Source: Chloroflexota bacterium
GTDB taxonomy: Bacteria; Chloroflexota; Dehalococcoidia; Lucifugimonadales; JADFKI01
Direction of reading: 5' to 3'
Assembly: GCA_027623195.1 (NCBI GenBank)
Contig: JAQBUT010000014.1
Span: forward strand, 21,881 to 85,880
DNA: 64,000 nt
Part shown: positions 55,311-55,994 of the stretch, one piece after another
Layout of the letters: each line of letters opens with the position of its first letter
Numbering within the stretch: the first letter of the stretch is position 1
Made by a program: the position numbers

Positions 55311-55994
55311 GGGAGGGGAGTGAAATAGACCTGAAACCGTAGACTTACAAGCCGTAGGAGGCGTGGCTTCGGCCAGGCTGACTGCGTGCCTATTGAAGAA
55401 TGAGCCGGCGAGTTAATTTAGGCAGCTAGGTTAAGGAATAGAAGTTCCGGAGCCGTAGCGAAAGCGAGTCCGAATAGGGCGTGAATCGGTTGGGAACAAA
55501 GTTGATGACGGATGTCCTGCGTGCGACGGCGGGTCACTTCGGTGATCCAAAGAAGTGCAATGGATGGAAGGCAGAGATGGAGTTTCCAATATGGCCGATG
55601 TGTTGTCTGGATTAGACCCGAAACCGGGTGAGCTACCCATGGCCAGGCTGAAGCTCAGGTAGTACTGAGTGGAGGGCCGAACCCGTGTACGGTGCAAAGT
55701 GCTGGGATGAGCTGTGGGTAGAGGTGAAATGCCAATCGAACCCGGAGATAGCTGGTTCTCCCCGAAATGTATTTAGGTACAGCCTCAAGGTAGTTTTGTG
55801 GAGGTAGGGCACTGGATGGGCTAGGGGGCGTGAGCTTACCAAACCCAACCAAACCACGAATGCCATAAAATGTTCCTTGGGAGTGAGACAGTGGGGGATA
55901 AGCTCCATTGTCGAGAGGGAAACAGCCCAGACCGCAAGCTAAGGTCCCGAAGTGTGAACTAAGTGTGAAAGGAAGTGGGAATCCCAAGACAACT

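Follow-up and report, generated by a model that had tools for sequence, protein, structure and literature searches.

An inherited hairpin arm at helix 31 of the 23S rRNA in one clade of SAR202 bacteria, retained in the RNA of a homologue

Introduction

Mycobacteria carry an additional helix of about 25 nt, H31a, at helix 31 (H31) of their 23S rRNA. This extra helix has been reported for M. smegmatis and M. tuberculosis, in whose ribosomes it lies on the solvent side, close to the central protuberance (PMC3286452, PMC5737476). M. tuberculosis also has H54a, the 'handle', a 100-nt 23S expansion segment at H54 that acts as intersubunit bridge B9 (PMC5737476). Expansion segment ES9 comprises the region H29-H31; in Lokiarchaeota its growth lies within H30, sizes of 29-103 nt are given for Lokiarchaeota and of 29-111 nt for the eukaryotes listed, and among prokaryotes supersized segments are attributed to two Asgard phyla alone (Penev et al. 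2020, PMC7594248). The 23S intervening sequences (IVSs) of Salmonella, alphaproteobacteria and Campylobacter are excised and fragment the 23S rRNA (PMC8708148, PMC2672173). Expansion segments have also been compiled for prokaryotic 5S rRNA, which is another molecule, and mostly come without RNA evidence (Stepanov and Fox 2021, PMC7812874).

Here a 23S rRNA gene of a Chloroflexota bacterium is analysed in which H31 is directly followed by a hairpin arm of 120 nt. The lineage is called SAR202, a common group of marine bacteria, because the named records that bear the insert are Dehalococcoidia or SAR202 cluster MAGs and fall in the same clade as the sequence analysed. In searches of the literature outside subscription journals, including PMC2672173, PMC11270868, PMC9297842 and PMC7812874, no description of a SAR202 H31 arm was found; insert tables of two CPR papers may list the site.

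Results

The window, i.e. the whole stretch of 64,000 nt analysed here (contig JAQBUT010000014.1), contains one bacterial LSU rRNA at 54754-57857 (+ strand), identified by Rfam (model matches 1-2925, 2745 bits), and this is the sole 23S copy in the 3.0-Mb assembly. The gene is unlinked to 16S or 5S and is directly followed by a tRNA-Met (CAT) at 57948..58022 (+). Three separate rRNA loci are present in this genome (G000), namely 23S with tRNA-Met (54754-58022), 16S and 5S, the last two on other contigs (C33 near 10850-11850; C26:18011-18127). The stand-alone 23S unit has a sigma-70-type promoter-like site at 54559..54587 (+; 11/12 match), then a terminator-like hairpin with a U run in the leader (54651-54700) and, 3' of it, a motif that we take to be boxA-like; the 23S leaders of two other loci, L141 and L149, are laid out similarly. 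The two arms of the pre-23S processing stem, at 54733..54762 and 57847..57876 (both +), form an uninterrupted 30-bp duplex of the RNase III type. Compared with the Rfam consensus, two smaller insertions of 18 and 24 nt are found in the 23S 5' domain at about 55030-55095.

H31, the number of which we take from E. coli numbering, belongs to the common core and lies directly 5' of the insertion at 55468..55480 (+), its end being set at 55481. The core resumes at 55602, so that the arm occupies 55482..55601 (+), 120 nt compared with about 4 nt in kin without an insert. Measured between two fixed anchors, the distance is 146 nt in the window and 29-32 nt in 67 loci without insert, which makes the insert about 116 extra nt and agrees with the 115-nt insertion right after H31 that an earlier note on this DNA had proposed. 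The length given there was right, and the end coordinate was not: the bounds 55481..55610 take in 9 nt of core. The core flanks of the insert align with those of insert-less kin and the core is intact. No known RNA family was found inside the insert at the Rfam gathering threshold, and no second copy in the window genome, in which one BLAST hit and one significant model hit were obtained, the next best hit having an E value of 0.58.

The window insert is predicted as one unbranched hairpin, as had been claimed, with weak folding energy (z -1.67, 11 of 200 shuffles as good; z -2.0 if the insert is folded alone). Over 62 inserts the median z was -2.5, 35 of them were below -2, and the median longest helix was 7 bp. 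Since the energy of the hairpin alone is unremarkable, support for the fold rests on covariation. An alignment of 30 sequences, chosen at about one or two for each genus, yielded 27 pairs in which 82.7% of cells are paired, compared with only 32-45% in slid registers; two-sided changes occur in 24 of the 27 pairs, a value reached by none of 500 shuffles. The same frame was recovered by RNAalifold with a covariation term of -5.0, and 92.3% of cells were paired in 55 distinct metagenome sequences, which stood outside model building and were aligned to the model. The covarying pairs claimed for the hairpin are thus confirmed on a larger sample, and the arm has a self-contained conserved fold as found in expansion segments.

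At the base of the arm, helices P1 (7 bp) and P2 (6 bp) have their 5' strands at 55485..55497 (+; 96.7% and 93.9% of cells paired in the 30 sequences) and their 3' strands at 55582..55599 (+; P2 55582-55587, P1 55593-55599), where they surround a conserved 5-nt bulge, A-x-x-A-U, at 55588-55592 (+; A 25/30, A 29/30, U 28/30). P2 is followed upwards by a G·A-rich 3x3 internal loop (GAA/GGA; 5' side 55498..55500, +, partner 55579-55581; middle opposition A·G in 24/30), about 9 positions, a second G·A-rich 3x3 loop (GGA at 55510..55512, +, partner GAA at 55567-55569; G·A 25/30, A·G 21/30, G·A 16/30) and about 5 bp. Beyond this basal half the arm is variable in length and mostly ends in a UUCG-type tetraloop; in the window, the predicted tip is a 7-bp stem with a C(UUCG)G tetraloop (55531..55548, +), and close relatives show two-sided changes in this stem. 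The helices are most often interrupted by loops of the 3x3 type, of which 31 predicted folds contain 59 (80% purine). G·A-rich 3x3 loops can form stacked sheared G·A pairs. By eye, no kink-turn or sarcin-ricin motif was seen in the alignment, the loops being symmetric and the bulge having no G·A tandem. The spacing of the basal half is in register across families, its key unpaired positions are conserved in 24-29 of 30 sequences compared with 5-18 of 30 for the most frequent base pair of the helices that separate the loops or lie distal to them, and pairwise identity drops from base to tip (0.66, 0.47, 0.38).

When 151 genomes of the order were searched at the DNA level, 111 had matches, from which 109 loci were obtained and 108 parsed (L109 had no anchors and was dropped from parse and rows). 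The anchors are 127-196 nt apart in 39 of the 108 loci (38 genomes, 22 genera, 18 of 51 families), 29-32 nt in 67, among them those of the outer branches of the order, and 49 and 54 nt in the remaining two. Across bearers the arm measures about 97-166 nt, in line with the 95-165 nt stated earlier. Sharing by many families, also stated earlier, holds for these 18 families; they are confined to one clade and the arm is not order-wide. In a tree computed from the sequences after excluding the insert, every long insert sampled from the order fell into this clade (8 short loci were left out), and in a 51-row subset tree the arm clade comprised 33 rows (SH-aLRT 97) with a minimum of 6 changes. Deep placements, drawn from a short alignment, are unsure, and one genome (G003) shifted between trees. 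This history is most simply read as a single gain followed, within the clade, by five or more losses or shortenings. The losses concern G088 with G118 (the other two members of their genus are bearers), G097 with G126, G050, G046 and G026, the last of which retains a short remnant hairpin with the same spacers; two of the losses lie within a genus. As the losses are clean, and some of them occurred inside one genus, the arm is dispensable. One assembly, G138, with a contamination of 10%, has two unlike 23S genes (L032, L035), both with the arm.

A mobile hairpin element, or an allele spread by gene conversion, similar to the hairpin inserts in CPR rRNA genes, was considered as an alternative. 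In its favour, bearers alone as a clade were rejected in the 51-row subset (AU p 4e-5), and three loci outside the main clade (L156, L280 and L309) form a lineage whose rod is built similarly and gave one weak match to the model (19.2 bits, E 0.002). Against such spread, the site is always the same, similarity of the inserts tracks family membership, no copies occur at other sites of the window genome, the long inserts of other lineages described below fail to match the model, and the 6 changes of one gain with losses are sufficient. Mobility or conversion is therefore very unlikely, and vertical inheritance within the clade is the reading followed here. The rod of the three outlying loci (L156:1317-1449, L280:713-848 and L309), 148-151 nt long with a similar bulge and similar loops, may be of older origin or have been transferred, and the gain may predate the main clade.

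A species-level genome collection was scanned for distances of 101-161 nt between exact anchors, a scan that sees genomes with assembled rRNA and these anchors. The 71 loci recovered were 49 from Dehalococcoidia/SAR202, 7 genuine 23S inserts from other lineages (three CPR genomes, Anaerolinea, Ca. Saccharicenans, a deltaproteobacterium and one unclassified), 6 duplicated or gapped assemblies and 9 non-rRNA chance matches. None of the 7 long inserts of other lineages matched the SAR202 insert model. Unrelated extra stretches of 78-127 nt were noted at the H31 junction of L132, L134, L140, L155, L167, L174 and L181; two CPR inserts there are near-regular duplexes (21/22 pairs) and may be excised. 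Of 401 genomes of the phylum, 15 others had short hairpins at the junction (G421 left out). Because at least 7 other genomes have unrelated long hairpins at the H31 junction, we regard it as a hotspot of insertion; in these anchor scans, SAR202 has the only long form seen there that spans families. Metagenomes contained at least 62 loci matching the SAR202 model (62 of the 80 fetched), and a metagenome pattern for the family of the window gave 0 matches. An assembly artefact was rejected on the basis of these metagenome loci and of the homologues in 38 genomes, several of them single-contig.

Near the H45 site (window-equivalent about 56110-56120), families of SAR202 without the H31 arm were seen to have rods of 60-110 nt whose loops are likewise rich in purines, namely in L065, L099, L103 and L092 (f25) and in L075-L077 and L079 (f14); model matches to these rods were weak and non-significant (E 0.12-0.16). 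In L090, L091 and L100 (family f5), a 23S insertion of 355-364 nt at window-equivalent 56884 is group I intron-like by eye.

Retention in RNA was analysed for L149, a pelagic homologue that is about 82% identical to the window in 23S, has 96.6 bits on model R1 and falls in the same clade as the window. At least half of the words of a 421-nt L149 query were contained in 17 RNA runs of 8 studies, and next to none in runs X21-X24. Four of these 17 runs, from four marine metatranscriptome studies, were compared over the L149 insert (1322-1441), 5' domain, leader, promoter and upstream gene, the evidence being assembled contigs with one depth per contig and neither strand nor molecule ends. Summed bin depths inside the gene were set aside, as other organisms dominate the conserved stretches. 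In X1, a contig covering 1290-1497 (208 nt, 0 differences) bridges both junctions at a depth of 91.9, compared with 99.6 for the adjacent exact flank and 0 in the leader and upstream bins. The X4 contig of 250 nt (1286-1535, 1 difference) bridges both junctions at 287 compared with 366 in the adjacent contig, the leader/promoter region having a depth of 5-10; two 5'-domain contigs of this run are 3-5x deeper (937, 1534) and are possibly shared with a sister species. X3 contains two insert variants (8.8 and 31.5, sum 40.3; flanks 31.9 and 28.4; upstream 0), and X13 one variant insert (77.6; flanks 114 and 115; leader 4.8). The ratio of insert to adjacent flank is accordingly 0.92 (X1), 0.79 (X4), 1.26 (X3) and 0.68 (X13), with both junctions bridged by at least 31 nt on each side in two of the four runs (X1, X4) and unbridged in X3 and X13. 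For X1, ratios of about 0.27, 0.66 and 0.83 would be expected if the insert were excised and degraded, cut twice and kept, or nicked once.

DNA carry-over and unprocessed precursor were rejected as the source of the L149 signal, because both would cover the leader as well, whereas the leader and the DNA upstream of it either have no coverage or lie 16-28x below the insert. With the leader as internal control, the doubt that the earlier note itself had raised over DNA in the library is answered for L149, and the retention in RNA that it had claimed is extended to four studies, at 0.68-1.26 of flank depth and at contig level. Joints that skip the insert were attributed to insert-less organisms and not to splicing (non-L149 letters or short sides, likeness 90).

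These depths bear on whether the arm is a spacer that RNase III excises without ligation, in the lineage of the window itself or under some conditions. An RNase III family gene was found in 33 of 34 genomes, including all tested bearers, as in hosts of IVSs, and loss of RNase III was thereby rejected as the reason for retention. The size of the insert, which lies within the 100-200 nt of IVSs (PMC8708148), and its patchy presence within genera agree with excision, and the RNA analysed is that of a homologue. Cleavage at the flanking stem removes the leader, however, and the L149 insert exceeds the leader in depth by at least 16-28x and comes close to its flanks in four studies; the distribution follows one clade; and long regular duplexes are lacking. 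Of the 22 positions in the best 22-bp register, 14 are canonical pairs in the window insert and no more than 19 in any of 62 inserts, compared with 22 in the pre-23S stem. We regard a classical IVS as highly improbable.

A more limited cut deserves separate consideration, in which RNase III or another nuclease cleaves one strand at the conserved bulge and the hidden break is held by pairing. Single-strand cuts at looped stems are known (T7 R1.1), and a 12-bp stem can suffice for such a cut by E. coli RNase III (PMC8708148), so that a nick of the arm is conceivable. The X4 ratio of 0.79 is close to the 0.83 expected for one nick, and the ratios of X4 and X13 fit partial cutting as well as strain splitting. 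Contigs of X1 and X4 cross the bulge with more than 40 nt beyond it, X1 at 0.92, which weighs weakly against a nick as contigs cannot show ends. Taken together, the contig depths for L149 fit intact or singly nicked RNA. The statement that the arm is not an excised spacer thus stands as far as excision with decay is concerned, which is excluded for L149, and is left qualified by the single nick, an unlikely event in our judgement.

Discussion

The arm is real, structured, inherited and, in the homologue tested, retained, and it is a much larger variant of the H31a type that is convergent on the ES9 region. As in mycobacteria, an extra helix extends bacterial 23S rRNA at H31, the likeness resting on the papers' wording 'insertion at H31'; unlike the short mycobacterial H31a, the SAR202 arm is described by 97-166 nt, a conserved bulge and G·A loops. 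Its size is not unprecedented in bacteria, given H54a, likewise a retained 23S segment, which unlike the SAR202 arm is located at H54 and has a known role as bridge B9 (PMC5737476). The arm lies in H29-H31 and therefore in the ES9 region (definition in PMC7594248; Table 2 of PMC2441807), is similar to or larger than ES9 in size, and is likewise supported by metatranscriptome contigs (PMC7594248). Unlike the Lokiarchaeota growth in H30, it follows H31, is bacterial and arose inside one order, hence convergence; with bacterial sequences compared, its confinement to part of one order, the outer branches of which have 29-32 nt, speaks against common descent with archaeal or eukaryotic ES9. The site of eukaryotic ES9, proposed in the earlier note, is thus apt for the region, the nearest precedent being the bacterial H31a. 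With the 23S IVSs (PMC8708148, PMC2672173) the arm shares an extra stem of 100-200 nt at a surface site, patchiness among kin and a host RNase III, and differs from them in that the L149 homologue is not depleted in RNA and has no long regular duplex.

We consider it likely that the arm is a retained, non-essential 23S expansion segment of one SAR202 clade. By analogy with mycobacterial H31a, it would leave the 50S subunit on its solvent face and point to the central protuberance, with an estimated length of about 15 nm (about 55 steps at 0.28 nm); the distal half would be free and variable in length, and the frequent loops probably keep RNase III from cutting the arm out. Fixed basal geometry and conserved unpaired adenines suggest docking or protein binding: the basal half (P1, bulge, P2, two G·A loops, fixed spacing) may quite conceivably, at a little under even chances, pack on the ribosome surface or bind a protein via the unpaired adenines.

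Retention is also compatible with a harmless rod without function, of which only a compact fold and avoidance of nucleases are required. The losses, two of them within a genus, and the repeated appearance of unrelated hairpins at the H31 junction speak for this, as does the finding that E. coli tolerates an insertion in either H29 or H31 (doubling times 55 and 76, wild type 52; PMC2441807). A rod under no other constraint would hardly explain why unpaired bulge and loop positions are better conserved than the pairs of the helices, why basal spacing is in register across families and why identity falls from base to tip. Absence of function is accordingly a possibility to be taken seriously, if not the one we would expect, and a docked or protein-bound base is the reading that we rate somewhat higher.

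No partner insert of comparable size elsewhere in 23S tracks the arm (loci of bearers mostly end before the last few hundred nt), and among 20 genomes no C-terminal r-protein length within the S10-spc-alpha and bL21-bL27 clusters does so. Genes for uL15 and bL27 were found in 34 of 34 genomes. Five r-proteins with long, very variable C-terminal tails across the order were noted (L206-L245); from gene order and N-terminus, we take them to be uS17, bL21, uS3, uL4 and uS5. It is doubtful, though conceivable, that the basal module (the 5-nt bulge and the two GGA/GAA loops of opposite orientation) serves specifically for docking and that the arm is a factor-recruiting or ribosome-linking tentacle, evolved independently of eukaryotes and Asgard archaea; the H45 rods of other SAR202 families would then have solved the same task in parallel.

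Expansion segments of large size are commonly regarded as typical of eukaryotes and Asgard archaea. Here, a segment of 100-170 nt that is retained in RNA has evolved within a single order of bacteria, many members of which are marine. Natural controls are available in congeneric species that have or lack the arm, and in one with a short remnant, and the cost and role of a large segment are therefore testable in a bacterial ribosome.
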